64,000 nt of DNA, from assembly GCA_965237415.1 (NCBI GenBank), contig CBDEFM010000002.1, forward strand, positions 3,008,001 to 3,072,000, in the 5' to 3' direction. Positions 8,507-22,269 of this stretch are shown piece by piece. The stretch is from Alphaproteobacteria bacterium (GTDB lineage: Bacteria > Pseudomonadota > Alphaproteobacteria > UBA828). Each line of letters begins with the position of its first letter. The stretch's first letter is position 1. The notes below the pieces were generated by a model. That model was not told the DNA's origin. It did not search any database and was given only the letters and a program-made list of their open reading frames with translations. The position numbers and the translations under genes are program-made.

Positions 8507-10252
8507 ATGAGTACCGCCAGCCCTGGCCAGCAAGAGAGCGTTCGCTACCAGCCCGACGAAAGCCCCCCGGTGCCGATCGCAGCCGGTTTGGGTCTTCAGT
8601 TCGCCATTCTCATCATCGCCAGGATCGTGGTCGTGCCCGTCGTCATCGTGCGTGCGGCCGGCGGCAGCGATGCCGACCTCTCCTGGATCCTGTTTGCCGC
8701 GATCGCGATCTGCGGCCTGACCACGATAGTGCAGGCGCTCCGTATCGGCCGCTTCGGCTCTGGATACGTCGCCGTGATGGGCACCTCGCTCGCAGTCGTC
8801 GGCGTGGGCGTCACGGCGGTAGCCGAAGGCGGCCTGTCGCTGCTCGCCACCCTGGTGCTCGTCGCGTCATTGGTTCCGCTGGCGCTCTCCTTCCGGCTCA
8901 CGCTGTTTCGAAAGATCCTGACGCCCACCGTCTCGGGCACGGTCATCATGCTGATCCCGGCCACGTTGATGCCGTCCGCCTTCGGGCTGTTGACCGACGT
9001 GCCGGCCGGCACGCCGGCGGCAGCCGCCCCGCTGTGCGCCATCGTGGCCCTCATCGTCATCATCGTCGCCACGCTGAAGGGAACCGCCGGGGTGCGTCTC
9101 TGGTCGCCGGTGATCGGCGTGGTCGCGGGTTGTCTGGTCGCGCTCTATTTCCGTCTCTACGACGTGGACGCCGTTATCGGGGCCTCGTGGATCGGCTTTC
9201 CAGCTACCGACTGGCCAGGCCTGAACCTCGACTTCGGGCCGGTGTTCTGGGCGCTTCTTCCCGCGTTCGTGCTCGTAGCCCTGATCGAGAGCGTGCAGAC
9301 GATCAGCAACGCGGTGGCAGTGCAGCGCGTCTCCTGGCGCCGCCCGCGGGCGGTGGACTTCAGGGCGGTGCAGGGTGCCGTAGCAACGGCCGGTATCGGC
9401 AACCTGCTGTGCGGTATCGCAGGCACGGTGCCGAACACGCTGTTGTCGACCAGCGTGGCGGTGACCGGCCTGACCGGCGCTGCCGCGCGCCGCGTGGGCA
9501 TCGCGGCAGGCGCGGTATTCATCGCCATGGCCTTCCTGCCCAAGGTTCTCGCCGCGGTCCTGGCGATACCGGGCCCGGTCGTCTCGGCCTATCTGGTCGT
9601 GTTGATGGCAACGCTTTTCGTGCTGGGCATGCAGATGGTCATCCAGGGCGGGATCGACTATCGCAAAGGCCTGATCGCAGGCGTGGCCTTCTGGGCAGGC
9701 GTCGGCTTCCAGTACGGCGCGATATTCCCCGAGTTCACGCACGACTTCGCCGGCGGCCTGCTGCGGAGCGGGGTCACGGCGGGCGGTCTTGTCGCGATCC
9801 TGCTGACCCTGTTCACGGAGGTGACGAAACCGCGGCCGCGTCGGATCGGGACGACGTGCGATGTTTCGGCACTGCCGGAGATCAGGGCGTTCCTGGCCGC
9901 GTTCGTATCCCGCAACGGCTGGGACGAGGCGATGGCGCATCGCCTCGACGCCGTCGCCGAGGAGACGGTACTGACCCTGATCGAGCGCGACGAGGAGGGT
10001 GCGGAGCGCGGGCGGCAGCGTCTGCTGCTCACGGCGCGCAAGGAGGCTGGCCGTGCGGTGCTGGAATTCGTTGCAGCGCCGGGTGACGGTAACCTCGAGG
10101 ACCGGATGGCCCTGCTCGGCGAAGACGCGGCCGAGATTCCGGCCGAGCGGGAGGTCTCGCTTCGGCTCCTGCGGCACCTCGCATCCTCGGTCCGACACGA
10201 GCAGTATCACGACACCGAATTCGTCACGGTCCGCGTGGATGTCCCAGACTGA
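8507..10252 (+). CDS. NCS2 (xanthine/uracil permease) family transporter with C-terminal degenerate HATPase_c/RsbW-like domain
   Basis: YQPDESPP...GLGLQF, TPTVSGTVIMLI, NLLCGIAGTVPNT and FLPKVLA..LAIPGPV motifs; soluble C-terminal ~130 aa with an anti-sigma-kinase-like pattern. Confidence 0.85.
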   Translation: MSTASPGQQESVRYQPDESPPVPIAAGLGLQFAILIIARIVVVPVVIVRAAGGSDADLSWILFAAIAICGLTTIVQALRIGRFGSGYVAVMGTSLAVVGVGVTAVAEGGLSLLATLVLVASLVPLALSFRLTLFRKILTPTVSGTVIMLIPATLMPSAFGLLTDVPAGTPAAAAPLCAIVALIVIIVATLKGTAGVRLWSPVIGVVAGCLVALYFRLYDVDAVIGASWIGFPATDWPGLNLDFGPVFWALLPAFVLVALIESVQTISNAVAVQRVSWRRPRAVDFRAVQGAVATAGIGNLLCGIAGTVPNTLLSTSVAVTGLTGAAARRVGIAAGAVFIAMAFLPKVLAAVLAIPGPVVSAYLVVLMATLFVLGMQMVIQGGIDYRKGLIAGVAFWAGVGFQYGAIFPEFTHDFAGGLLRSGVTAGGLVAILLTLFTEVTKPRPRRIGTTCDVSALPEIRAFLAAFVSRNGWDEAMAHRLDAVAEETVLTLIERDEEGAERGRQRLLLTARKEAGRAVLEFVAAPGDGNLEDRMALLGEDAAEIPAEREVSLRLLRHLASSVRHEQYHDTEFVTVRVDVPD

Positions 10253-10628
10253 CGTCACGAGAGGCCCTGCGGAGGGCGGCCTGTTGGGTTCCGGCCCGCT
10301 GCACCAAGTGTGAGGAGGTGGCGGAAGGGCTTGCGGTTGCCGCAAAGAGCCTGGCAAAATTTGACGACCGGAAGCTCAATACACATTGGGACCGAAGTTC
10401 CAGCGACAAGCCCTCAGACCAACATTGTCGGGTAAGAGAGGCGAGGCCGGGTGGCAACGCATCGAGCTTGATGGGTCAATGGTTTGGGAATTCGCAATCT
10501 CCCCGCTCGTCGAGATTGGTGCGATTCCATCGATCGGAAACCGTCAGGGATGCGATGGAACTCGATAACGGGGCACTCGCCAGGCATTGGTCGCTGAGAT
10601 CGTCTGCGAAGGGACGGCGCGTAGCCGC

Positions 10629-11840
10629 CTACCCTGTCGGCAGCCGGCCTGTTCGTGGCGGAGTTTCTCGTGCCTTTATGCTGACCTTGAAATCGAAACG
10701 ATGGTTTTCGGTGTTGCCGACAATGCGGACGTTGTCCTTGGTTTCCATATCGACGGCGGCGCCGAGTCCGACCATGACCGCTTCATCGAGGATTACTCGG
10801 GCGGCCTTTCCGAGGGCGTGGGCGTGCGGAACGTCGATCATTGCCCGCATCCCTGCTTCGCCCACGTTCACTTCGAAGTATCTCCACTGACCAAAAGTAT
10901 GTCTTGCGGCCTGCAGCGTTTCGGCGATCTCCGGACAATCTGCCGCTATCCGTCTCCTGCCGGGCTCCGGCAGGTCGTCATGGAGCTCGATGAGATCGTG
11001 GGTCTTTGCTGCTTCATCTCCGCAGGTAAGACAGATGGCTTTCATGGCAAGCTCGCAGGCGAAGGCCGCAGTCATCGCTTCGATCAACGTGCTACCCATC
11101 CGGTTTTTCAGCCTGTTGCCGGAATAGTTCGGGTCATCCCTGAATCCTTCGATGGACAAGGGGAAGGCCAGGAATCCGTCATCCTTCACCTGTACGTCTG
11201 GCATATGGGCGACGGACATCTCGTCGGGATAGGAGATCTCCGCCACGCCCGCCATCAGGACATGGGCTTGGATGAAAAGCAGACCAGGCGAGCCCAGAGG
11301 GAAGTCGTGCCGGTTCAAGCGGTTTCGCTTTTTCCCCTCCGACAGCTTCGTTTGAACACGTGCCGCGAGCTCTGCCTCCGAGAGGCTGTCCGGTTCCGGA
11401 AAGATCTTTTGGACAAAATTCGCGTCGCCGCATTCAGGCGCTCGTCCCGATTGCATGTTCATGAGGTTGAGCGCGGTTCGATCCTGCATCTCGTTGAATT
11501 CGTCTCGCGCCTTCTCTCCCTCAGTCTTGGTCCCGCATACGCGGCACCTGATTCCTGTCCAGCCGCCATTGTCTTCCCGTCGTGCAAGCAGGCTGCCCCA
11601 ACAACGCGTGCAGCGACCCTTGAGCTTGACCTTGGTTTCCTTGTCCAGGAACGAGAAGGTTGAGGACATGGTGTCCAAATCCACGCCCCATTCGATCGGG
11701 ACGTTCGCAATGGAGCCGTCCTTTGGCGGGGACGGAACAGTACGGCGAGGCCCGCTGAAGCGATGGAGAAGCGGGGCCAGACGCTGTGCGGTCGCACCGA
11801 CGACGTTGGAGAGCGTGGCAATGGGAGATGACCAGGTCAA
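10629..11840 (-). CDS. Hypothetical protein with N-terminal Zn ribbon and C-terminal HEPN-like domain
   Basis: CTRC...CRVC; AFACELAMKA...KTHDLIELH...FGQWRY. True start may be downstream (MSSTF). Confidence 0.6.
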   Translation of the reverse strand: MTWSSPIATLSNVVGATAQRLAPLLHRFSGPRRTVPSPPKDGSIANVPIEWGVDLDTMSSTFSFLDKETKVKLKGRCTRCWGSLLARREDNGGWTGIRCRVCGTKTEGEKARDEFNEMQDRTALNLMNMQSGRAPECGDANFVQKIFPEPDSLSEAELAARVQTKLSEGKKRNRLNRHDFPLGSPGLLFIQAHVLMAGVAEISYPDEMSVAHMPDVQVKDDGFLAFPLSIEGFRDDPNYSGNRLKNRMGSTLIEAMTAAFACELAMKAICLTCGDEAAKTHDLIELHDDLPEPGRRRIAADCPEIAETLQAARHTFGQWRYFEVNVGEAGMRAMIDVPHAHALGKAARVILDEAVMVGLGAAVDMETKDNVRIVGNTENHRFDFKVSIKARETPPRTGRLPTG

Positions 11841-12682
11841 AGGACAGGACTCGCGGTAGTCAAACGGTTGTTGGCCGGTTCACGACCTCAATATGGGGAC
11901 GGGCAACAGTGGCTCAATCGGCGCTCCGAACAAGAATCGTAGGGTTGGCCCAAACCCGCAGACCCGCAATCATCGAGAGCTTCGAGGCAAGCCGAGCCCA
12001 ACGGCAGCGCAGATGCTGGTGCAACCGCTGAGGCTTGACAGTTCGGCGATCGCCGGCCGGAGATAGGGGGCCGTCAGTGCCAGGCGCCTCGCCGTCTTTC
12101 TGCGGCGGTTATGGAGCCCGCCCCGTTCATTGAAATTCCGTATTCGATCCGGCGGCCGGGATGTGCCAATCGCGGCACCATGCTGGAACGGCGGAGCGAC
12201 CATGTGAAGTTCCTCCCGGCGGTCGCGGCCGGCGGTGTCGGCACGGCCACATGCGCCGCGGGCATGGATTCGCCCGGCAAAGGCATTTTTTTCCCGGACC
12301 TGGAACTGTTAATGGAGTCGGTCCAGCACTCGGCGGTCCGAGCGTCCGCCGCGGGAGGCAGGACCATGACGGGGCGCGCGCCGCACGAGACCTGGGCAGC
12401 CGGATCCTTCCGGGTCCGCCCGGGCCGGTCGGAGCGCGAACCGGCCGGATCTCGGCGGGCCGGAGCGGAGAGCTTCGGGAGCGGGTTTCCATGCGGGAAT
12501 CGCCCCGGCGACACCGGGCGTCGGCGACCGCAAGATCGCGCCCGAGGACCGCTCCGGGGCGGGGCCGGGAGCTTGGGCGCCGCCGGGCGCGTCCCCGGGG
12601 CCGGTCCGGCCCGGACAAAGCCTTGCGTGACAACGGTTTGCGCTGATTTTCGTGCGCTGCGGCACCGCTCTGCGCGGTGCTC

Positions 12683-12718
12683 GATTGCGCTCGATAACTG
12701 TCGTTATCAACCGTAATC
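12683..12718 (-). other. lox-like recombination site A (imperfect)
   Basis: GATTGCGCTCGATAA-CTGTCG-TTATCAACCGTAATC; right arm has 3 mismatches; spacer is the reverse complement of the site C spacer. Confidence 0.8.
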
Positions 12719-12801
12719 TTGTCAACCCGGTTTCGCGCCCGCCGGCCTGCGGTGCCCTCCGCGAGATGCAGTCACCCGCCGCCGGCGGGCGCTACGTCGT
12801 T

Positions 12802-12831
12802 GTAATACAGGGTTTTTCCGGGGTCCGGCAA
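12802..12831 (-). promoter_or_regulatory. Candidate sigma70-type promoter inside the putative invertible segment
   Basis: Minus strand TTGCCG-N18-TATTAC in an AT-richer patch of otherwise very GC-rich DNA. Confidence 0.3.
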
Positions 12832-12883
12832 GGCTCGCGCCGGCCGCGCAGCCGGGACACCGGGCGCACCGGCGCCGCAAATT

Positions 12884-12901
12884 ATTGCGCTCGATAACTG
12901 T
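12884..12901 (-). other. lox-like half site B
   Basis: ATTGCGCTCGATAACTGT is identical to the site A left arm plus the first 4 nt of its spacer; no right arm. Confidence 0.65.
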
Positions 12902-13025
12902 TTTGTGAATCCGCGCCCGGCGGGGAGCGCGTGACCCGGGTCCGCCCGCCCGCCGGCCTTCGCCGGCACATGATCCTCTTATGGGATCATAAACATTCGA
13001 CCATGCCTGTACACCCCGGTGCGGG

Positions 13026-14009
13026 TCACTCGCGCCGCTGCAGCCGGGCGAGCTGCGCCGCCCCGCTGCGCCGCGCGAGCAGCCGCTCGCCGTAGCGGTT
13101 GACCATGGCGGTGGACTTCCAGCGCCCGGCCTGCAGGATCGCCGGCAGCTCGATGCCGGCGGCGATCATGTCCTGCGCCGCGCCCACGCGCGCGCTGTGT
13201 CCCGAGAGGCCCTGCACCACCGTTTCCGGCAGCCCGGCGCGGCGCGCCATGGCCTTGAGGATGCGCGGCACCTGGCCGGGCGGAAGTCCGCCGCCGACCC
13301 GCCCGCCCTTGCCGACCGAGCGGAACAGGGGCCCGCTCGAGACGCCGCCGCGGTCGAGCCACGCCCGCACCAGCCTCACACTGTCCGGCCCGACCCAGAC
13401 GATCTCGCCCATGCCCTCGCAATCGGTCTTGCTGCGGCGCACCAGGAGGCTGGCGTCGCCGCCCATTTCCTCAAGCAGGTCGGGCACTTGCAGGGATACG
13501 AGCTCGGCGCGGCGGAGCAGCGTGTCGTAGGCGACGGCGAGCAGGGCGCGGTTGCGGTCGTCGATCGGGCGGTCGCCCGCAGCCTCCACCAGGCGCTGGC
13601 GCAGCGGCCAGGTCAGCCCGTGCGCCTGGCCCTGGCGGCGCCCCCTGCAACGGTGCATGCGCTTGAGCGCGAGCCGCACGGCCGGGCTCTTGAGCGTCCC
13701 GGTGCATCCAAGCACCCGGTGGGCGACGGCGATGCTGGCGACGTAGCGGCGCACCGTTGCCGGCGCCCGGTGCTCGGCCATGGCGTCGACGAAGGCGGCG
13801 ACCGTCTCCGCCTTCGCCGGCAATGCCCTCTCCCCTCGCACGGCGCACCACCCGGCGTAGATCGCCAGATCGGACCTCACCGCCCGCTCGGTGTTGCTGC
13901 TGAACGCGTTGCGGGCCGCCCGGACAAAGGGTCCGAGCAGGTCCGCGAGCGCGGTCTCGCGTTCCGTTCCCGTCGCCTCCGAGACATCGAACGGGGGTTC
14001 GAAATACAT
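13026..14009 (-). CDS. Cre-like tyrosine recombinase
   Basis: N-terminal core-binding domain (SSNTERAVRSD...APATVRRYVASI); catalytic LLRRAEL, RRSKTD, SGHSARVGAA, AGRW (Trp as in Cre) and NRY. Confidence 0.92.
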   Translation of the reverse strand: MYFEPPFDVSEATGTERETALADLLGPFVRAARNAFSSNTERAVRSDLAIYAGWCAVRGERALPAKAETVAAFVDAMAEHRAPATVRRYVASIAVAHRVLGCTGTLKSPAVRLALKRMHRCRGRRQGQAHGLTWPLRQRLVEAAGDRPIDDRNRALLAVAYDTLLRRAELVSLQVPDLLEEMGGDASLLVRRSKTDCEGMGEIVWVGPDSVRLVRAWLDRGGVSSGPLFRSVGKGGRVGGGLPPGQVPRILKAMARRAGLPETVVQGLSGHSARVGAAQDMIAAGIELPAILQAGRWKSTAMVNRYGERLLARRSGAAQLARLQRRE

Positions 14010-14045
14010 CAGCGCGCCTCCGGACCGTCCAAAACAGACCCCCCG

Positions 14046-14081
14046 GATTGCGCTCGATAACGACAGTTATCGAGCGCAATC
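14046..14081 (+). other. lox-like recombination site C (perfect 15-bp arms)
   Basis: GATTGCGCTCGATAA-CGACAG-TTATCGAGCGCAATC, 37-72 bp upstream of the recombinase start. Confidence 0.85.
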
Positions 14082-14316
14082 GGCGCGCGCGGCTCGTGCG
14101 GGCGCACTGGGGTCAGTTGGATTTCCGGCGCGTTGTCGCGGCCGGGCTTCTGCGGGGGAGTGAGCGATGACGGCGAGTTGGCGCAGGAACGGGATCGGAG
14201 CAGCAGCGCGGCGGGCGGGCGCACCGGCCAGACTGACTCTACCCCCCGCACACCGGGTGCACACCGGGTGCGCACCCTACGCAGCGCGCGTGCTCGACAG
14301 CCCGGGGAAACCTGAC

Positions 14317-17300
14317 GTGACCGGTGCGGGCGCGCCGGCCCGGGGCGTGAGGCCCGCGCCGGCGCCGGCGGGCGCGGCGCGGCGTGCCGGAGCGCGCCTG
14401 GCCTCCTTCCTCCTGCTACTGCTCGCCGCGGTCTGCGCCTTTTCCCCGCGGGCCGAAGCCCAGCCGGCGGCGATGGACAGCACGCCGATGGTGACGACCT
14501 TTGTCGACAACACGGCGGAGAGTCGCTTAGGCGCGTCCGATATCTTTACCGATGGTGAATCCGCTCAATCCTTCACCACGGGCATGAACGCCGGCGGCTA
14601 TGTTCTCTCCAGCATCGAGATCGTAAGCACTGCGCAGAACAAAGCGTTTTCCGTAGAGGTTCACACGACCGATGCCGACGGCGGGCCCGATACCCTGTTT
14701 GCCACTCTGACCGCGCCGAGCGACTTTTCGGTCGCGGACGTCGAATTCACCGCGACCGCGAACACGGTGCTCGCGGCGAATACGACCTACGCCGTTTTTC
14801 TACCGGAACCGTCGGGTCTGGACGCATTCCTTTCGGCCACGCTGTCGAACACCGACGGCGGGAGCGACGGCTGGGGCATCGGCGACGCTTACCACTTCTA
14901 CAACACAGGTACCAGTGCGTGGCAGCTCGCTGGTAGCGGCCGTTCGCTGCGCATGGCGGTGAAGGGCACCGCGGTGGCGTCGTCAGGCTCAAACCCGGCG
15001 ACGGGCTTGCCGGCGGTGACGGGGACGGCGCGGGTGGGTTCGACGGTGACGGCGTCGACGGCCTTGATCCGGGACGCCGACGGGCTGACGGGCCCGGCCT
15101 ACGAATACCAGTGGCTGCGGGTCGACGGGGGCTCGGACACGGAGATTTCCGGGGCGACCGGGCGGACCTACGAACTGACCGCGGACGACGCCGGCAAGCG
15201 GGTCAGGGTGCGGGTGAGCTTCACCGACGACGCGCTGAACGAGGAGACGCTCACCAGCTCCGCCTTCCCGAGGACCGGGACGATCGCCATGCCGGTGCCG
15301 GCGATGACGGACCCGAGCGACCTGCTCTCGGCGACGCTGACGGTGAAGGATGTCGCCTCCCAATATCTCGGCTGCAGCGGCGGCACCTCGGCCAGTCAGG
15401 TTTCCTGCAAGAACACCGACGTGCTGACCGCGCGCGGTTTCACGGTCCCCGGCACGACCACGACCCGCAACATCGACACGATCCAGCTCAGCACCGGCGG
15501 GGGGCTCATCGTGAGTTTCGACGGATCGTTCACCGACGAGCAGAAGGCGCGGCTCGCGATCGCGTTCGGCACCACCGAGCTGGATTTGAGCGACGCCACC
15601 TTCTCGGGCAACGAAGCCCGGTGGACCGGCACCGGCCTCAGCTGGACGGCCGACGACACGGTCGCGGTGAAGGTCAAGGACCGGGGCACCGGGGACGTCA
15701 CGCCGCCGGCGTTGAACTTGCAAGGGAGTTTCGTCAACAGTCATGGCCAAAATTTTTTCCTGCAATTCAATGAGGTACTGGACGGGGACAACCTTCCACC
15801 ACCGAGCGCCGTCACCGTCACGGTCGACAGCAGTCCGGTCGCGGTGACCGGAATTTCCCGACTTTCAGGGACCTTGATTGTCGACGTTTCGCCCGTCATC
15901 CTGGCGGCCCAGACGGTCGTCGTCACCTACACCGACCCGACCCCGGGCGACGACGCGCAGGCCATCCAGGACGCGGCCGGCAACGACGTCGCCACCTTCG
16001 AGAACGTGGCGGTGAGAAACGGATCCACCGTCACCGGCGTGCCGGGCGCGCCGACGGGTCTGACGGCGACGAAGGCCGCCGGCGCGAACCGCGGCACGCA
16101 GATCGACCTTGCCTGGGACGAGCCGTCGGACACCGGCCTTTCGCAAATCTCCGGCTACCGGATCGAGTGGTCGGCCGACGGCAACGCGCCCTGGGCCGAT
16201 CTGGTCCCGGACACCGGCTCGACGGACAGGACCTACCCGGACAGCGGTCTCCCCTCGCCGACCACCCGCCACTACCGGGTCTCGGCGATCAACCAACAGG
16301 GCACCGGCAGCCCGTCCGGCATTGCCGACGCCACCACCGACGATACCGTGGGGCCGGTGCTGGAGAGCCCGGAGGTCAGCGGGACCGGCACTCAACTCGA
16401 ATTGCGTTTCAATGAGGCATTTCCCAGCCCCGACGCGCCCCCGAAGACCGCTTTCACGGTGACAGCCGACGGCGCGCCTGTCGACATCGGACACACAGGC
16501 GTTACCGGAAACTCCGGTATTCTATTGAACGTACTCTCCCCCACCATCCGGCAGGGCCAGACGGTCGTCGTCACCTACACGGATCCCAATCCCGGCAGCA
16601 ACGACGCCACAGGGGTCATCCAGGACACGTCCGGCAACGACGCGGCGAGCTTCACCACCGGCGCGGGCGGCGTCCCCGCGGTCGTCAACAGCTCGACCCA
16701 AGCCCCCACCGCCCCCGGCAAGGTGCCGAACCTGGCGGCCGCGCCCGGCGGCGACACCAGCATCGTGCTGACCTGGGACCGGCCGGCCGACAACGGCGGC
16801 CGGGTCATCGAGAGCTACCGGATCGAGGTCTCCGAGGACGTCGACCCCCTCGTCTGGCAGGAGCTGGAGGACGAGCACGACGCGATGAAGGACGGCGCGA
16901 TCGAGCGGCGCTACGAGCATCCCGGGCTGGATCCGGCCACCACCCGCCACTACCGGGTCCGGGCGAAGAACGCGGTCGGCGACGGCGACTGGTCGGACGA
17001 GGACGGCGCCACCACCACCTCCGGCGCTCCGGACGCCCCGACCGGGCTGACGGCGACGCCGGGGCTGCCGTCGCCGCGCGACGGCACGACGCTGATCCGG
17101 CTCGGCTGGGACGCGCCTACGCTTGCGCAGGAGGGCGATTCGCGGATCACCGGCTACCGGATCGAGGTCTCCGAGGACGTCGACCCGCTGGTCTGGGAGG
17201 CGCTGGTGCCCGACACCGGGAACCGGAACCGGGTCTACCGGCACACCGGGCTTGGCTCGGAGGTGACGCGCCACTACCGGGTCTTTGCGATCAACGACGA

Positions 17301-20300
17301 CGGCACGAGCCTGGCCTCGGAGGTCGACAGCGCCACCACCCCCGACATTTTGGGGCCGGTGCCGGTCTCGGCGAGCGTGGCCGAGACGGGGACCAAGCTC
17401 ACGATCGTCTTCAACGAGATGCTCGACGGGACGGCGGCGAACCTGCCGGCGGCCGGGCGTTTCACGGTCCGGGCCGGTGACGGGGCGCGGTTCAGGATCG
17501 GCGGCGTCGCGGTGAGCGGCACGGACGCGACCCTGAGCCTGCACGCGGACTCCCCCGTCATCCGGACGGGGCAGGCGCTCACGGTCGTCTACACCGACCG
17601 CACGGCGAGCGATGACGCGGCCGGGGTGGTCCAGGACGACGACGGCAACGACGCGGCGGCGTTCACGCTCGGGCCGGGGCAGACGGTCACGGTGACCAAC
17701 GGCTCGAACGAGCCCGCCACCGCCCCCGGCAAGCCGCAGAACGTCGAGGCGGAGTCCGGCGGCGACGACCGGATCGTGCTGACCTGGGATGCGCCGGCGG
17801 ACAATGGCGGGCGGGCGATCGCGGACTACCGGGTCGAGGTCTCGACCGACGGCAACCCGCCCTGGACCGAGCTGGCCGCCAGCCACAACACGATGACGGG
17901 CGGCCGGTTCGAATACACCCACACGGGCCTCGGCACCGGCGACGTGCGCCACTACCGGGTCTCGGCGCGCAACGCGATCGGCCGCGGGTCGGCCTCGGAC
18001 ACCGAGATGGGGGTGGTCGACCTGAAGGGCCGGGTGGTCCTCTCGGCCGCCGCAGCGAGCGTCGCCGAGGGCGGCAGCGTCGCCTGGACGGTGACGGCGA
18101 CGACGGACGAGGACGCGCGGCCCGAGAGCGGCCTCCAGATGCAGGTGACGGTGGTCTCGGAGGACGGCACGGCGGCGGCGCCGGGCGACTACGCGGCGCT
18201 CGAGGCGGCCGCCGGGACGGTGACCTTCCGGCGCTCGGACTTCCATCGCCGGAGCGTTCAGGACGTCGGCTATCGCTGGGTGGCCGTGAAGAGGGGCCCG
18301 GTTGCGGTGGCGATCGCCGACGACGTCGAGGTCGAGGCGGAGGAGAGTTTCGCGCTCACGATGTCGATCGGCAGCGGCGGCACCAGCTGGGTGCGCGGCA
18401 CGGACCGCGTGGAGGTCGCGATCCCGGACACGGACGAATGGGGTATCGCGGTGGTGGCGGAGCCGGCCGGGATCGCCGAGGGCGAGACCCGCGAGGTCGC
18501 GCTGACGGCGCGCATCGTGCTCGGCGACGGGACCGTGCCGGCCGAGGATGCCTGCGTGGCGCGGTTCCCGGTGAGCGTGCGGCTCGAGACCGGGGGCACG
18601 GCGACGGCGGGCACCGACTACACGCTCGACGGGGCGCTCGACGGGCAGACGATCGCGGCCTGCGGGGCGGAGGCGAGCTGGCGGGTGACGCTGACGGCGG
18701 CGGTGGACCGGGTGGACGACCCCGGCGAGACGGTGGCGTTCGCGCCGGAGCTCGTCGAGGCGCCGGAGACCGCGCCGGCGTTGCAGGCGCCGGCGGCGGT
18801 GACGGTGGGCGAGTCCCGGGGCGTGGTGCTGAGCGCGTTCGCGCTGGACGTCGAGGAGGGCGGCGAGGAGAGCTACACGGCGGTGCTGACCTCGCGGCCG
18901 ACGGGGACGGTGAGGCTGACGCCGAGGGTGTCGGGCGACCCGGACGTGACGGTCGAGCAGCCGCGGCTGACCTTCACGCGGGACAACTGGAACCAGCCGC
19001 AGACGCTGACGGTGCTGGCGGACCAGGACCCGGACGACGAGGACGACGCGGCAACGATAAGCCACGGCGTGACGGGCGCGGACTACGGCGCCAACGGGGT
19101 GACGGCGGGCGAGGTGCGGGTCGCGGTTCTGGACGACGACAAGACCTTCGGCGTGATGACGGTGCGCCTGTCGGACGGGGCGGACGGTGCGGGCACGCAC
19201 GATCCGGCGCCGGCCGAGCATCACGGGGAAGCGTTCCACATCGCGCTCTGGTGGTCGGAGACGCGGACCCACGATTATGAGGCGCCGCGAAAGGCGATCG
19301 GTGCGGACCGGGCGATCCGGGTGACCGGGGCGGCGGTGGTCCCGGTCAGGGACGAGCACACCGGCAGTTGGACCCAGTCGCGGCTGCGCCTCAAGCTGAC
19401 CCCGGACGGGACGGACGACGTGACGCTGGTGCTGGAGCCGATGGACTGCAGCTACCCCGACTGGAGGCAGCCGCGGCCCGACCCGCACGCGCTCTGCGCG
19501 TGGCGCCGTGACGGCCTGGGGATCACGGGGCTCCCGGAGCGGGTGCGCTGGACGGTGCACGGCATCGGCGCCGCGCCGGCGGCGCCGCCGAACCTGACGC
19601 TGGGCACGGACGAGATCCTGACGGTGCAGGCGGACGTGGTGGATTCGCGGACGGTGCTGGTGGCGGGCTTCGACGCCGATCGGGACGCGTCGCACTGGCG
19701 GGTCGAGGCGCAGGCGCCGGGCGGCGACTGGAGCGGCGCGCGGGTCTGGCGGGGCGCGAAGCACGGGAGCCGGCACAACGTGCGGCTCGACGGGCTGGCG
19801 CCCGACGGCGCCTGGGCGGTGCGGGCGCGCTGGGAGAACCGCTACGGCGCAGGGCCGTGGGCGGAGGTACGGACGACCGACGGGGTGGCGCCGCCGGCGC
19901 CGCGGGGGCTCGCGGCCGCGCCGGGGCCGGACGGGCGCTCGGTGCGGCTTACCTGGAGGCCCGCGAGCGCGGCCTCGGCGGCGCGCTACCAGTACCGGCT
20001 GGGCCGGCTCGCGCAGACGATGGCCGGGGGCTGGCTCGACATCCCGGACAGCGGTCCGGGGGCGGCGCACCGCGCCTCGTTCACGGTCCACGGGCTGGAG
20101 CGGGTCTGGGAGATCAAGGCGCAGCTGCGCGCGGTGAGCGCGTCGGGCCGGGCCGGGGCGGCCTCGGCCGAGGCGCGGGTGCCGGCGGCGCGGCCGAGGG
20201 TGCTGGATGAGGGCGTCGCGCTGACGTCGGATCCCGGCGAGGACGGGCGCTACGGCATCGGCGACCGGATCGAGGTGGCGGTGACGATGAGCCGCCCGGT

Positions 20301-22269
20301 GCGCCACGAGGGAGCGGCGCCGGTGGTGAAGCTCCGGATCGGCAACGAGACGCGCGATGCGGCGCTGGTCCGCATCCGCCAGCCCGGCACGGCGGGGATC
20401 GGGGATTCGGGCTATGGCAGCGGCGACACGCTCGTCTTCGCCTACACGGTGCGGCAAGACGACGAGGACATGGACGGGATCGCGATCCCGGCGAACGGGC
20501 TGCGGCTCAACGGCGGGCGCCTCGTCGACGCGAGCCCCGGCGGCCGCGGCGACGCGGCGGCGGTCGGGCTCGGCCGGGCGCGGCACTTCCCGGGGCACCG
20601 GGTGCAGGGGGTGCTGCCGCGGGTCACGGGCATCGAGCGGCTCGACAACAAGGTGTGGGTGCATTACGAGCGCGACCTCCAGCCGTGGACGCTCGATCCG
20701 GTCCTCCGGACCGGCGCGCTCGGGGGGCAGTTCCACCCGGGCTACTCGTTGTCGAGGCCGGTCTCGCATGCGGTGATCGACGCCCGGATCGTGCGCGGGC
20801 GCGGCTGGTCGCGGAACTGCGGGCGGACGGAGACCGGCTGCCGGACGGTCCGGCTGACGCTCGGCAGGGTCCACCGCGACGCGACGGGCGGGCCGGGTCG
20901 GGAGGGGGGCTACGAGGCGCCCGAGCCGGGCGAGACGGTGCGGATCTCCTACGCGCCGAGCCCGCACCATGCGAAGTACCGGCTGCGCGACGCGGCGGGC
21001 AACGAGGTGCCGGGGTTTGCCCCGGAGGTGGCGGTGCATCTGGCGCCGGGCAGCGCCCCGGTGCTCGCGGTGGACGACGGCGCGGGCCGGGAAGGAGTGG
21101 CCCCGGTCCGGTTCACGGTGCGGCTGGTGCCGGCGGCGACGTCGGAGGTCACGGTGGACTACATGACCGCCGACATGCCGGCGACGGTGCGGGCGCCCGC
21201 CGGGCGGGCGACCGCGGGCGTCGACTACGAGGCGAAGTCGGGCACGCTGGTGTTCGCGCCGAAGGAGACGGTGAAGACGATCGAGGTGACGGTCCTCGAG
21301 GACACGGCGGACGACAGCGGCGAGGTCTTCCGGCTGTTGCTGGCCAACCCGTCGGGTGCGGCGCTCGGCGACGCCGTGGCGACGGGGACGATCCGGAACG
21401 ACGAGCTGCTGACGGCGGCCTTCGGGTCGCTGCCGCCGAGCCATGACGGGGAGACGGCGTTCACGCTCGGGCTCGCGTTCAGCGAGGAGGTGGCGGTGAG
21501 CGCGCAGATGCTGCGCGACGCGGCGCTGCGCGTGACCGGCGGGTCGGTGACCGGGGTGCGGCAGGTCGATGCCGCGAGCACCCGGCGCTGGGAGATCGCG
21601 GTCGCGCCGTCGTCGGACGCTGCGGTGACGGTGGCGCTCGCGCCGCAGGCGAGCTGCGATGCGGTCGGCGCGGTCTGCACCGAAGACGGTCTGGGGCTGG
21701 ACCGGGCGGCCGAGGCGGCGGTGCCGGGGCCGGCGGCGCTGGAGGCGCCGGCGGTGGCGGGCGTGGCGCAGGTGGGCTCGACGCTCGAGGCGTCGGTCGC
21801 CGGGACGCCGGGCGGCGCGGTGACCTGGCAGTGGCTGCGCGGCGTCGAGGAGATCGCGGGGGCGGACGCGTCCGCCTACACGCCGGTGGCGGCGGACGTG
21901 GGCGCGCGGCTCTCGGTGCGGGCCGGGCGCGGCGGCGCGGCGGCGACCAGCGCACCGACGGCGCCGGTGTGGCCGGCGCCGGTCAACCCGCCGCTCGCTT
22001 CGGGCGAGGAGGAGCTGCTGTCGGCGGTGCTGACGCTGGGATCGCTGCAATCCAGCGTCCCGCTCGGCGGCTATCCACGAGGCGCGCGGTTTCCTCACGG
22101 ATGCGGCTGCGCTCATGGACGCGGCAAGGGCCGCGCGGGTCTTCGTCGAGGTGTACGAGGAAATACCTGCCGCCCGCGTGCAGCGGATCGTCGAGCGCGA
22201 AGACATCGCCGACATGGTCGCCGTCCAGGCATATGCGGGATTCCTCCGGGGCGACGCGGCGGAAGCTGA
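14317..22269 (+). CDS. Giant secreted/surface protein (Fn3, SwmB-like, Calx-beta and Ig-like repeats), C-terminally truncated near 22075
   Basis: Signal-like LASFLLLLLAAVCAFSPRAEA; repeated Fn3 (PGAPTGLTA...W..P...YRIE...YRVSAIN), SwmB-like (FNE.LD...VTYTDP...IQDAAGND) and Calx-beta (ATAGVDYEAKSGTLVFAPKET) motifs. Start inferred at GTG 14317 (ORF track starts at 14167). The last ~65 aa look like read-through into foreign DNA. Confidence 0.85.
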   Translation: MTGAGAPARGVRPAPAPAGAARRAGARLASFLLLLLAAVCAFSPRAEAQPAAMDSTPMVTTFVDNTAESRLGASDIFTDGESAQSFTTGMNAGGYVLSSIEIVSTAQNKAFSVEVHTTDADGGPDTLFATLTAPSDFSVADVEFTATANTVLAANTTYAVFLPEPSGLDAFLSATLSNTDGGSDGWGIGDAYHFYNTGTSAWQLAGSGRSLRMAVKGTAVASSGSNPATGLPAVTGTARVGSTVTASTALIRDADGLTGPAYEYQWLRVDGGSDTEISGATGRTYELTADDAGKRVRVRVSFTDDALNEETLTSSAFPRTGTIAMPVPAMTDPSDLLSATLTVKDVASQYLGCSGGTSASQVSCKNTDVLTARGFTVPGTTTTRNIDTIQLSTGGGLIVSFDGSFTDEQKARLAIAFGTTELDLSDATFSGNEARWTGTGLSWTADDTVAVKVKDRGTGDVTPPALNLQGSFVNSHGQNFFLQFNEVLDGDNLPPPSAVTVTVDSSPVAVTGISRLSGTLIVDVSPVILAAQTVVVTYTDPTPGDDAQAIQDAAGNDVATFENVAVRNGSTVTGVPGAPTGLTATKAAGANRGTQIDLAWDEPSDTGLSQISGYRIEWSADGNAPWADLVPDTGSTDRTYPDSGLPSPTTRHYRVSAINQQGTGSPSGIADATTDDTVGPVLESPEVSGTGTQLELRFNEAFPSPDAPPKTAFTVTADGAPVDIGHTGVTGNSGILLNVLSPTIRQGQTVVVTYTDPNPGSNDATGVIQDTSGNDAASFTTGAGGVPAVVNSSTQAPTAPGKVPNLAAAPGGDTSIVLTWDRPADNGGRVIESYRIEVSEDVDPLVWQELEDEHDAMKDGAIERRYEHPGLDPATTRHYRVRAKNAVGDGDWSDEDGATTTSGAPDAPTGLTATPGLPSPRDGTTLIRLGWDAPTLAQEGDSRITGYRIEVSEDVDPLVWEALVPDTGNRNRVYRHTGLGSEVTRHYRVFAINDDGTSLASEVDSATTPDILGPVPVSASVAETGTKLTIVFNEMLDGTAANLPAAGRFTVRAGDGARFRIGGVAVSGTDATLSLHADSPVIRTGQALTVVYTDRTASDDAAGVVQDDDGNDAAAFTLGPGQTVTVTNGSNEPATAPGKPQNVEAESGGDDRIVLTWDAPADNGGRAIADYRVEVSTDGNPPWTELAASHNTMTGGRFEYTHTGLGTGDVRHYRVSARNAIGRGSASDTEMGVVDLKGRVVLSAAAASVAEGGSVAWTVTATTDEDARPESGLQMQVTVVSEDGTAAAPGDYAALEAAAGTVTFRRSDFHRRSVQDVGYRWVAVKRGPVAVAIADDVEVEAEESFALTMSIGSGGTSWVRGTDRVEVAIPDTDEWGIAVVAEPAGIAEGETREVALTARIVLGDGTVPAEDACVARFPVSVRLETGGTATAGTDYTLDGALDGQTIAACGAEASWRVTLTAAVDRVDDPGETVAFAPELVEAPETAPALQAPAAVTVGESRGVVLSAFALDVEEGGEESYTAVLTSRPTGTVRLTPRVSGDPDVTVEQPRLTFTRDNWNQPQTLTVLADQDPDDEDDAATISHGVTGADYGANGVTAGEVRVAVLDDDKTFGVMTVRLSDGADGAGTHDPAPAEHHGEAFHIALWWSETRTHDYEAPRKAIGADRAIRVTGAAVVPVRDEHTGSWTQSRLRLKLTPDGTDDVTLVLEPMDCSYPDWRQPRPDPHALCAWRRDGLGITGLPERVRWTVHGIGAAPAAPPNLTLGTDEILTVQADVVDSRTVLVAGFDADRDASHWRVEAQAPGGDWSGARVWRGAKHGSRHNVRLDGLAPDGAWAVRARWENRYGAGPWAEVRTTDGVAPPAPRGLAAAPGPDGRSVRLTWRPASAASAARYQYRLGRLAQTMAGGWLDIPDSGPGAAHRASFTVHGLERVWEIKAQLRAVSASGRAGAASAEARVPAARPRVLDEGVALTSDPGEDGRYGIGDRIEVAVTMSRPVRHEGAAPVVKLRIGNETRDAALVRIRQPGTAGIGDSGYGSGDTLVFAYTVRQDDEDMDGIAIPANGLRLNGGRLVDASPGGRGDAAAVGLGRARHFPGHRVQGVLPRVTGIERLDNKVWVHYERDLQPWTLDPVLRTGALGGQFHPGYSLSRPVSHAVIDARIVRGRGWSRNCGRTETGCRTVRLTLGRVHRDATGGPGREGGYEAPEPGETVRISYAPSPHHAKYRLRDAAGNEVPGFAPEVAVHLAPGSAPVLAVDDGAGREGVAPVRFTVRLVPAATSEVTVDYMTADMPATVRAPAGRATAGVDYEAKSGTLVFAPKETVKTIEVTVLEDTADDSGEVFRLLLANPSGAALGDAVATGTIRNDELLTAAFGSLPPSHDGETAFTLGLAFSEEVAVSAQMLRDAALRVTGGSVTGVRQVDAASTRRWEIAVAPSSDAAVTVALAPQASCDAVGAVCTEDGLGLDRAAEAAVPGPAALEAPAVAGVAQVGSTLEASVAGTPGGAVTWQWLRGVEEIAGADASAYTPVAADVGARLSVRAGRGGAAATSAPTAPVWPAPVNPPLASGEEELLSAVLTLGSLQSSVPLGGYPRGARFPHGCGCAHGRGKGRAGLRRGVRGNTCRPRAADRRARRHRRHGRRPGICGIPPGRRGGS

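Follow-up and report, generated by a model that had tools for sequence, protein, structure and literature searches.

Positions 12683-14081 of the window, the 64,000-nucleotide stretch of alphaproteobacterial DNA analysed here, probably form a self-contained inversion cassette that acts as a phase-variation switch for an adjoining surface-protein gene. This reading is suggested by two lox-like sites, by a Cre-like recombinase with a full catalytic set, and by an architecture that is conserved and co-varies beside genes for large secreted proteins in related loci (Table 1). An earlier note, made from the letters of this DNA, had proposed a switch of this kind; half-site C, the TTGACA inside site B, the approximately 600 nt of non-coding DNA beyond site B and three further cassettes are additional to it.

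Table 1. Features of the candidate cassette and its flanks, in window positions
Feature	Position	Strand	Basis and remarks
Conserved non-coding leader beyond site B	12100..12682	-	No frame with coding-like third-position G+C
Site B, full lox-like	12683..12718		Sequence, arm scan, repeat search, locus comparison; outer arm 12683-12697 (identical to the site A arms), spacer CTGTCG 12698-12703, inner arm 12704-12718 (3 mismatches)
Conserved TTGACA (tgtcaa on the plus strand)	12720..12725	-	2 nt inside the inner arm of B; points outwards
Promoter-like TTCACA-17-AATAAT	12881..12909	-	10/12 positions; overlaps half-site C, points towards and through site B
Half-site C, one candidate recombinase-binding arm and a partial spacer	12883..12901		Arm scan, repeat search
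Promoter-like TGTACA-16-TATGAT	12986..13013	-	9/12 positions; directly after the recombinase stop, towards site B
Cre-like tyrosine recombinase P0001, 327 aa	13026..14009	-	ORF, Pfam, alignment with Cre
Recombinase 5' leader (U)	14010..14045	-	Sequence, conserved across loci; GGAGG ribosome-binding site at 14017-14021
Site A, full lox-like	14046..14081		Sequence, arm scan, repeat search; inner arm 14046-14060 (15 nt), spacer CGACAG 14061-14066, outer arm 14067-14081 (15 nt)
Giant surface-protein ORF, 2700 aa	14167..22269	+	fn3, SWM_repeat and Calx-beta domains; divergent from the recombinase

Two inverted lox-like sites and a half-site

Sequence inspection confirmed the two sites that the earlier note had reported, a perfect one upstream of the recombinase and an imperfect one downstream. 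Site A (GATTGCGCTCGATAA-CGACAG-TTATCGAGCGCAATC) is a perfect palindrome with a symmetry of 16+4+16 about the core GACA, while site B (GATTGCGCTCGATAA-CTGTCG-TTATCAACCGTAATC) has the left arm of site A, a right arm with three mismatches and the reverse-complement spacer. The mismatched arm of site B is its inner one, on the recombinase side, and these mismatches could weaken the site. A repeat search recovered the pair as a 37-nt inverted repeat of 92% complementarity whose arms are 1327 nt apart. The 15-nt arm occurs ten times in the window when up to three mismatches are allowed, versus 1.61 expected, and none of 100 shuffles gave ten; all five matches with at most one mismatch in the window scan fall within 12683-14081. 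Across the 4.75-Mb genome, the exact 15-mer arm is confined to this cassette and one paralogous cassette, and a loose search for the site core returned 20 matches, nine of which have strongly palindromic arms and belong without exception to the Cre-like recombinase family. Sites A and B are exact, non-random and, within this genome, restricted to cassettes of that family.

Site A is separated from the recombinase start codon downstream of it by 36 nt, too few to hold a promoter, and a site at -71/-72 from this codon is kept in related loci. Half-site C has the orientation of site B and lies 200 bp inside it; in related loci its position is +121 to +146 relative to the end of the recombinase gene (stop codon), and its arm co-varies, locus by locus, with the arms of A and B.

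The enclosed gene encodes a predicted Cre-type recombinase

The open reading frame between sites B and A encodes P0001, in which a domain search identified Phage_integrase of Pfam (2.6e-15). The nearest solved relative of P0001 is Cre, with an E-value of 4e-27 over residues 31-312 (XerD, 6e-4), and residues R166, K194, H271, R274, W297 and Y306 align with R173, K201, H289, R292, W315 and Y324 of Cre. All six are invariant in an alignment of 11 homologues. The alignment with Cre bears out the description of the enzyme as Cre-like in the earlier note, and P0001 is assigned to the Cre type on the basis of its predicted catalytic residues, its greater similarity to Cre than to the Xer and integrase families, and an adjoining palindromic target with an asymmetric spacer. 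Chromosome dimer resolution by a XerC/XerD-dif system was ruled out, as XerC and XerD models scored 34-38 bits on P0001, far under the NCBIfam equivalog cut-offs of 279-335; a single-dif-site reading is also contradicted by the four paired-site cassettes in the genome.

Crossover cores co-vary across related cassettes

We scanned 47 loci for the sites and detected both in 30, the metagenome relatives taken in being the best 80 of more than 473. The central 6 bp of A are the reverse complement of those of B in every one of the 30 two-site loci, with no match in direct orientation (0/30). Twelve distinct spacer types are represented, and pairing the A of one type with the B of another gave no match in 132 combinations; some of the 30 loci are duplicates or close kin, making the 12 core types the safer count. 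Strand exchange requires matching crossover cores, which binding alone does not. The identical inverted cores across loci therefore fit recombination of A and B with each other, and their co-variation provides a sequence-only argument that recombination is active. Inversion is presumably still occurring.

The recombinase family is multi-copy, with four full cassettes and a fragment in this genome and eight full cassettes and two fragments in a second genome (G041), whose family includes two further genomes with copies. All four full cassettes of the present genome have a common layout of A, C, TTGACA and B, each with arm sequences of its own. Within one genome the cores differ, with three types among the four cassettes here and four among the eight of G041, as would be expected if selection opposes cross-recombination between cassettes. 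Within the genus, the closest recombinase to P0001 has 75% identity, and 5 of 20 genomes carry the cassette. The earlier note had held that homologues with only the single upstream site would speak against a switch: of the 57 distantly related loci L062-L118, at 42-55% identity, at least 22 are of this kind, whereas relatives of at least 59% identity carry the pair.

A giant surface-protein gene adjoins site A, and candidate promoters face site B

The surface-protein ORF has an alternative GTG start at 14318, and a signal-peptide-like stretch begins near 14380; its likely start is separated from site A by 85 to 236 nt, enough space for a separate promoter. Among 43 loci, 28 have a divergent ORF of 700 aa or more that starts no further than 750 nt from site A, and with a minimum length of 250 aa the count rises to 39. 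In several loci, the surface-protein ORF and its ribosome-binding site start approximately 20 nt or less from site A, so that no space is left there for a promoter outside the cassette. The giant adhesin neighbour described in the earlier note is present here, most loci encode a large secreted protein in this place, and the paired inverted sites that it had suggested might recur with such a neighbour in homologues do so in the loci counted above. No orthologue of the window's adhesin was found in the relatives examined. That the surface-protein gene adjoins the cassette is observed; that the cassette regulates it is our proposal.

Sigma-70-like sites number three in 12000-14500 versus 0.1 expected, all of them on the minus strand and exiting the cassette via B. 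The TTCACA-17-AATAAT type of motif recurs, as judged by eye, around half-site C in other loci, and in the window half-site C falls between the two hexamers. The TTGACA lies no more than 11 nt from site B in 24 of 35 loci; no convincing -10 hexamer accompanies it at 16-18 nt, because this position coincides with the spacer. We consider these outward-facing motifs to be putative promoters. In DNA similarity the window's copy of the leader beyond site B matches that of one locus only (L009), across all reading frames, while approximately 700 nt of leader are common to the other loci among themselves. An Rfam search of 10000-14400 with E up to 1 returned just two chance-level matches and placed the leader in no described RNA family.

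Proposed mechanism

In Cre-type systems, the orientation of the spacer determines the outcome of recombination, according to the available text of PMC10250229. In the mechanism that we propose, the Cre-type recombinase would bind sites A and B at their four arms and exchange strands inside the identical 6-bp cores; as the cores are in opposite orientation, the exchange would flip a segment of approximately 1.36 kb, from 12701 to 14063, including the recombinase gene itself. This segment is asymmetric, with the recombinase start at one end and half-site C, the two promoter-like motifs and the TTGACA, all of which face outwards through B, at the other. In the orientation seen, these outward elements are turned towards the non-coding leader, and the surface-protein gene is faced by the start of the recombinase gene; for the adhesin this is presumably the OFF state. 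A flip would turn the outward elements towards the surface-protein gene, and the cassette would operate as a phase-variation switch for that gene.

More tentatively, and with rather less confidence than in the switch itself, the cassettes could form a portable, plug-in family of Cre-type flip elements with its own co-evolved arm and spacer code of at least 12 cores, by which one bacterium might turn as many as eight giant surface-protein genes on and off separately while its chromosome stays unscrambled. Under this broader idea, half-site C would permit deletion of the promoter end, which would lock the switch, and at some loci a tetranucleotide repeat located at the beginning of the adhesin gene would add a second layer of phase variation.

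Orientation and footprints of rearrangement

Contigs from four metagenome runs (Logan contigs) that bridge A or B are in the reference orientation, and among these contigs neither a flipped molecule nor a listed joint between approximately 12700 and 14063 was found. As contigs lose rare variants, the missing flipped joint is compatible with flipping. The proposal of the earlier note that the segment can flip is supported by the paired inverted sites, conserved and co-varying in 30 of 30 loci, and the assembled contigs show no inversion. The orientation relative to the surface-protein gene is identical in all 43 standard cassettes examined. An exact flipped-junction pattern matched none of 61 genomes, a search of low sensitivity whose control, a matching pattern for the reference junction, recovered three of the eight G041 cassettes and none in four other genomes. 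Two of the metagenome runs contain an opposite-strand joint, 13030/14045, which has just 32 nt on one side and was counted neither way. Several contig 'skips' probably originate from related cassettes in the metagenomes.

Natural variants carry what appear to be footprints of rearrangement at the sites. Relative to its paralogue L119, locus L120 has precisely lost the stretch between C and B; the deletion falls in an 18-nt direct repeat, and replication slippage is a possible cause. In L010, the recombinase start is joined to the reverse complement of the leader. L046 and L129, the latter found in one of the two further genomes from the family of G041, represent a second arrangement (type II), in which inverted sites enclose a recombinase-less segment of approximately 355 bp, immediately upstream of a surface-protein gene. 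No one-step rearrangement at A, B or C, whether inversion or deletion, was found that would turn a standard cassette into type II. The idea that the mini-segment of L124 is in the opposite state to that of L046 was dropped, since the two interiors are colinear.

Alternative explanations

An unlikely alternative in our estimation is that the cassette inverts with a different target, such that flips mainly alter expression of the recombinase itself, or transcription of the leader and of the variable genes that follow it, while the adhesin relies on its own promoter. The leader is conserved over approximately 700 nt in many loci and is then followed by varied genes, among them those for secreted proteins (L011, L016, L018) and, beside the second cassette of this genome, a SIR2-like protein; moreover, the outward motifs face the leader in every assembly, and the gap of 85 to 236 nt next to site A in the window would accommodate a promoter for the surface-protein gene. 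Against this, only one neighbour keeps its character across loci, the large secreted protein beside A; several loci lack promoter space on that side, and the recombinase-less mini-segments of L046 and L129 are likewise placed directly upstream of surface-protein genes.

The remaining alternatives dispense with switching altogether. A selfish mobile element is quite improbable: on this view, a recombinase gene bounded by inverted sites would insert near surface-protein genes and spread among them, and the sites would simply be its ends. The multi-copy occurrence of the cassette, its patchy distribution in the genus, its presence in metagenome-assembled genomes labelled Alphaproteobacteria, Rhodospirillales, Defluviicoccus and Pseudomonadales, its truncated remnants and the fact that DNA similarity between the two closest copies in the genome stops at the sites would all fit such spread. 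Most loci, however, are conserved past both sites, by approximately 130 nt on the adhesin side and 700 nt on the leader side, the bases flanking the outer arms here form no direct repeat, inverted cores are incapable of excising a circle by conservative recombination, and the matching cores indicate recombination of A with B. An insertion sequence or transposon with terminal inverted repeats was rejected as the main explanation on the grounds of these conserved flanks and the lack of a target duplication. It is very improbable that A, B and C are operators only, through which a recombinase-like protein that has lost recombination represses its own gene and the outward promoters. While site A directly upstream of the recombinase gene, half-site C between promoter-like hexamers, the TTGACA abutting B and the single upstream palindrome of distant homologues could all be read in this manner, binding needs no identical inverted non-palindromic cores, yet these are present in every two-site locus and across 12 core types, and the catalytic residues are all invariant.

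Significance

If the segment does flip, it would be a natural counterpart to the engineered Cre/lox inversion switch, with the enzyme, two targets, an accessory arm and outward promoters contained within 1.4 kb and reused beside giant adhesin genes. The cassette hosts are uncultured Alphaproteobacteria and some Gammaproteobacteria, and programmed phase variation, so far described mostly from pathogens and gut bacteria, would be extended to free-living, environmental lineages. The differing crossover cores would explain how up to eight switches could be held in one genome without cross-talk, and the mapped co-variation would supply a ready series of recombinase and site pairs for genome engineering.

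Comparison with known systems

In Salmonella, the segment inverted by Hin at hix sites contains the recombinase gene and an outward promoter, and Hin is a serine recombinase that requires an enhancer and Fis. The cassette described here similarly holds a recombinase gene and candidate outward promoters inside the segment, but its enzyme is a tyrosine recombinase. The yeast 2-micron plasmid carries a tyrosine recombinase gene, Flp, between inverted repeats that hold the FRT target, the native form of which includes an additional, third arm for binding; the repeats are long, and the system serves to amplify a eukaryotic plasmid. The gene between inverted targets and the extra arm, here half-site C, are shared with our cassette, which unlike Flp/FRT is chromosomal, Flp/FRT being no chromosomal gene switch. 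To Cre/loxP of phage P1 the cassette is linked by a full-length alignment, the six catalytic residues and a lox-type palindrome adjoining the gene that is readable as 13-8-13. It differs in that two inverted sites enclose the gene and a third single arm is present, in its chromosomal setting beside surface-protein genes rather than on a phage or plasmid, and in the low identity of its enzyme to Cre.

In the available text of PMC10250229, a Cre-type set was assembled by seeking one palindrome within 1 kb of each gene; the word 'adhesin' does not occur in its main text, and its supplementary lists may include members of the recombinase family of the window. In the main texts of the open full-text literature that was searched, including passages of PMC10250229, PMC6083910, PMC7096588 and PMC11892184, no account was found of a Cre-type gene lying between inverted lox-like sites next to adhesin genes. 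The statement in the earlier note that no Hin-like architecture built on a Cre-like enzyme was known stands, within that literature, for a wholly enclosed Cre-type gene; it does not extend to tyrosine-recombinase promoter inversions beside adhesin genes or to a recombinase gene within its own inverting locus, which are known from ipuS/IpuA and PsrA, respectively. As described in the available part of PMC6083910, uropathogenic Escherichia coli encodes a tyrosine recombinase beside an invertible promoter, ipuS (IpuA-IpuB), that switches the autotransporter UpaE. The ipuS element is 260 bp long with 7-bp repeats, one of which lies within the recombinase gene; the promoter is located inside the coding sequence of that gene, and just the last 11 codons of ipuA are affected (PMC6083910). 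Like this fimS-type element, the cassette combines a tyrosine recombinase with inverted sites beside a surface-adhesin gene; unlike it, the whole gene is inside the segment, the sites are full palindromes of 34-36 bp and the enzyme resembles Cre, not FimB. Among the variants, those of type II (L046 and L129) are closer to fimS than is the standard cassette. In the phase-variable pneumococcal type I restriction-modification locus cod/ivr, the gene for the recombinase PsrA (CreX) lies within its own inverting hsdS locus, where inversions shuffle hsdS coding segments via repeats of 15, 85 and 298 bp, according to the part of PMC7096588 available. A tyrosine recombinase gene included in an invertible locus is common to that system and, as proposed, to ours, whereas the element described here resembles a promoter cassette with lox-like palindromes.

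A Cre-type recombinase lies between paired lox-like sites

The earlier note had proposed a self-inverting phase-variation switch in which inverted lox-like sites (A and B) enclose a Cre-like recombinase, and reading of 12400-14500 bore out the paired sites. The symmetry of site A reaches 16+4+16 around GACA, the inner arm of site B carries three mismatches, and a repeat finder returned the A/B pair as a 37-nt inverted repeat that is 92% complementary. Across the window the arm occurs ten times with up to three mismatches versus 1.61 expected, a count reached in 0 of 100 shuffles, and the five copies with 0 or 1 mismatch all fall within the cassette (12683-14081), one of them being half-site C, which the note had overlooked. 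The exact arm is confined in the 4.75-Mb genome to this cassette and a second locus 102 kb away, and a whole-genome scan for palindromes of the A/B type gave nine strong ones, every one tied to this recombinase family.

When all solved structures were searched with the recombinase, the closest were Cre and engineered Cre forms (E 4e-27; residues 31-312 against Cre 32-330), with XerD reaching merely 6e-4, while the Xer models of NCBIfam scored 34-38 bits versus cut-offs of at least 279. R166, K194, H271, R274, W297 and Y306 align with Cre R173, K201, H289, R292, W315 and Y324, and these six catalytic residues are invariant among 11 aligned homologues; judged by its sequence, the enzyme looks catalytically competent. 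Because of the Cre match, the invariant catalytic residues and the low Xer scores, the name Cre-like is a fair one.

Features of the window cassette and of related loci. Positions are those of the window unless a homologous recombinase locus (L-numbers) or contig 2 of the window's genome (G000:C2) is named.
Feature	Position	Strand	Description
Site A	14046-14081		Two 15-nt arms around CGACAG, perfect palindrome (sequence reading of 12400-14500)
Site B	12683-12718		Outer arm identical to that of A; spacer CTGTCG, reverse complement of that of A
Half-site C	12883-12901		A single arm with a partial spacer; same orientation as B, 200 bp inside B
Recombinase ORF	13026-14009	minus	327 aa, Phage_integrase domain
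Divergent ORF (adhesin)	14167-22269	plus	2700 aa; fn3, SWM_repeat and Calx-beta domains
Best promoter-like motif	12909-12881	minus	TTCACA-17-AATAAT, half-site C between the hexamers
Recombinase fragment	G000:C2:2247098-2247223		42 codons
Tetranucleotide repeat	L014:3770-3837		17 units
Tetranucleotide repeat	L022:3788-3839		13 units
Tetranucleotide repeat	L046:2609-2656		12 units
Tetranucleotide repeat	L015:3836-3851		4 units

Distribution and layout of the cassette family

The window's genome contains four full cassettes. The recombinase of the second, 102 kb away, is 80% identical to that of the window and has the same A, C, B layout, with DNA similarity between the two cassettes stopping at the sites; two further paralogues (68-69% identity) share the layout but have their own arm sequences, and one of these lies on the other contig beside a 3072-aa ORF. 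Public genomes yielded 30 related loci from MAGs labelled Alphaproteobacteria, Rhodospirillales, Defluviicoccus and Pseudomonadales, and metagenomes gave 473 or more relatives, the best 80 of which were retrieved. One genome, G041, carries eight full copies and two fragments, and the gene is present in just 5 of 20 other genomes of the genus of the window's genome.

Read in the direction of the recombinase, the standard cassette begins with a large divergent ORF, a conserved 5' region of ~130 nt and site A at -71/-72, followed by a 36-nt leader with GGAGG and the recombinase gene; half-site C lies at +121 to +146, and after ~200 nt come TTGACA and site B at ~+300 to +345. Beyond B lies a conserved stretch without a coding-like frame (the leader beyond B), ~700 nt long in many loci, which had no match in Rfam. 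That of the window resembles only its counterpart in one locus (L009), and does so across all reading frames, as expected from conservation at the DNA rather than the protein level.

In 24 of 35 loci TTGACA stands no more than 11 nt away from B. It lacks a good -10 hexamer. A consensus promoter scan of 12000-14500 found three sigma-70-like sites versus 0.1 expected, all on the strand that exits the cassette via B. A small hairpin-forming palindrome (12969-12991; ATGATCC ... GGATCAT) 35 nt past the recombinase stop codon overlaps the second promoter-like motif and is not conserved in the genome's second cassette.

The giant surface protein that the note had placed beside the cassette is present, its gene having up to 236 nt available for a promoter of its own. 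A search of homologues for paired sites and such a neighbour, as the note had suggested, found both sites in 30 of the 47 loci scanned and a divergent ORF of 700 aa or more starting within 750 nt of A in 28 of 43, most of these ORFs extending past the flank examined; in 39 of 43 the divergent ORF is 250 aa or longer. In four loci the surface-protein gene carries (GGCA)n or (TGCC)n repeats in its 5' region, at a distance of 90-160 nt from A. These would let the same genes vary in phase by a second, slipped-strand route; the genome of the window lacks any such run of four or more units.

Several other features were observed around the cassettes. The second cassette (L007:7232-14737; G000:C2:3121232-3128737) sits among mobile and defence-like genes, including a DDE transposase and another phage-type integrase; beyond its leader lies a SIR2-like protein (PADLOC Aga_SIR2 match, 1e-13), and the neighbouring divergent ORF, of 281 aa, begins with a signal-peptide-like stretch and falls in no Pfam family. 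Beyond the window's leader, 10250-11900 has 57-60% G+C versus 67% for the genome, and a 403-aa ORF (10629-11840, minus strand) has a weak HEPN match under the Pfam cut-off and none in NCBIfam or PADLOC. Two orphan lox-like palindromes lie outside full cassettes (G000:C2:2249598 and G000:C2:3838744), one of which shares its arms with the contig-1 cassette, differs from it in the core and lies 2.4 kb from the 42-codon recombinase fragment. Two loci, L126 (G003:C1:645281-660139) and L131 (G054:C237:1-8246), each have two family recombinase genes on the same strand, 3-4 kb apart, with paired sites at the first gene only.

The cores of sites A and B co-vary

In all 30 loci with both sites the 6-bp centres of A and B are reverse complements of one another, and identity in direct orientation was found in 0 of 30. 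As several of these loci are duplicates or close kin and the count is not tree-aware, the 12 distinct core types are the safer figure; pairing A and B across types gave 0 matches in 132. The arms of A, B and C likewise co-vary within a locus. Identity of the cores is a general requirement of tyrosine recombinases. For Cre, the need for matching asymmetric cores in strand exchange is stated in a survey of Cre-type enzymes (PMC10250229). A repressor would require the arms alone, whereas asymmetric core identity is what strand exchange needs, making this the strongest argument for A x B recombination. Cores also differ within a genome (three types among the four cassettes here, four among the eight in G041), which would stop cassettes recombining with one another.

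The note had set against its proposal homologues with a single upstream site. These do exist, at least 22 of 57 loci at 42-55% identity having one palindrome, although the detector needed 10 of 13 palindromic positions and degenerate second sites may have escaped; relatives at 59% identity or above carry the pair.

Footprints of rearrangement and the search for flipped molecules

Footprints of REARRANGEMENT comprise L120, L010, L046/L129, L124, truncated genes and short forms. Compared with its paralogue L119 in G041, L120 lacks exactly the C-to-B stretch, including the TTGACA end, with the junction inside a shared 18-nt repeat; the deletion may have been made by the recombinase or by replication slippage. 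In L010 the 5' end of the recombinase and its site abut the leader in reverse complement, as a flip would be expected to leave them, but the DNA past the recombinase gene is unrelated. L046 and L129 (83% identical over 1500 nt) have a second architecture, in which the recombinase has no upstream site and a ~355 bp segment with two full sites and reverse-complement cores lies 114-115 nt past its stop codon; the segment contains a remnant of a recombinase 5' leader along with the TTGACA end, and the next gene on the same strand encodes a surface protein. L124 has a similar segment without a recombinase, truncated recombinase genes retain C, TTGACA, B and the leader, and short forms (~59% identity) have B a mere 61-103 nt past the stop codon. 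In L025 and L026, site B is absent, and an inserted stretch with a 397-aa ORF, which looks like an insertion sequence, takes its place just past the recombinase gene; the two inserts are 99.9% identical and in opposite orientation.

Assembled metagenome contigs aligned to 11800-15000 bridge A (e.g. 13741-14236) and B (e.g. 12644-13037) in the reference orientation, with no flipped molecule seen and no A x B joint listed among them. As contigs lose minority forms, the missing joint is compatible with flipping. Contigs of two metagenome runs join 13030 and 14045 on opposite strands, with a shorter side of 32 nt, which is not the expected A x B junction. An insensitive pattern search for flipped junctions was negative. 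All 43 standard cassettes have the same orientation relative to the large ORF, as would be the case in a population largely in one state, and equally with a fixed arrangement. Which state would express the adhesin we infer from the outward-facing motifs alone. On balance, the cassette is real, conserved and of Cre type. Its design and co-variation suggest that it probably inverts itself, with phase switching of the neighbouring giant surface protein as the most likely role.

Comparison with known systems

Enzyme and sites are of the same type as Cre/lox, and the cassette follows the logic of fimS, ipuS and similar invertible promoter switches. In Hin and Flp systems the recombinase gene is enclosed, resembling the window cassette. 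The pneumococcal PsrA locus is alike in this enclosure (PMC7096588), and at ipuS an adjoining tyrosine recombinase controls an autotransporter adhesin, with one repeat within the recombinase gene (PMC6083910). The survey of Cre-type enzymes seeks a single palindrome no more than 1 kb from each gene, and the word adhesin is absent from its main text (PMC10250229). A full-text literature search found no description of this cassette.
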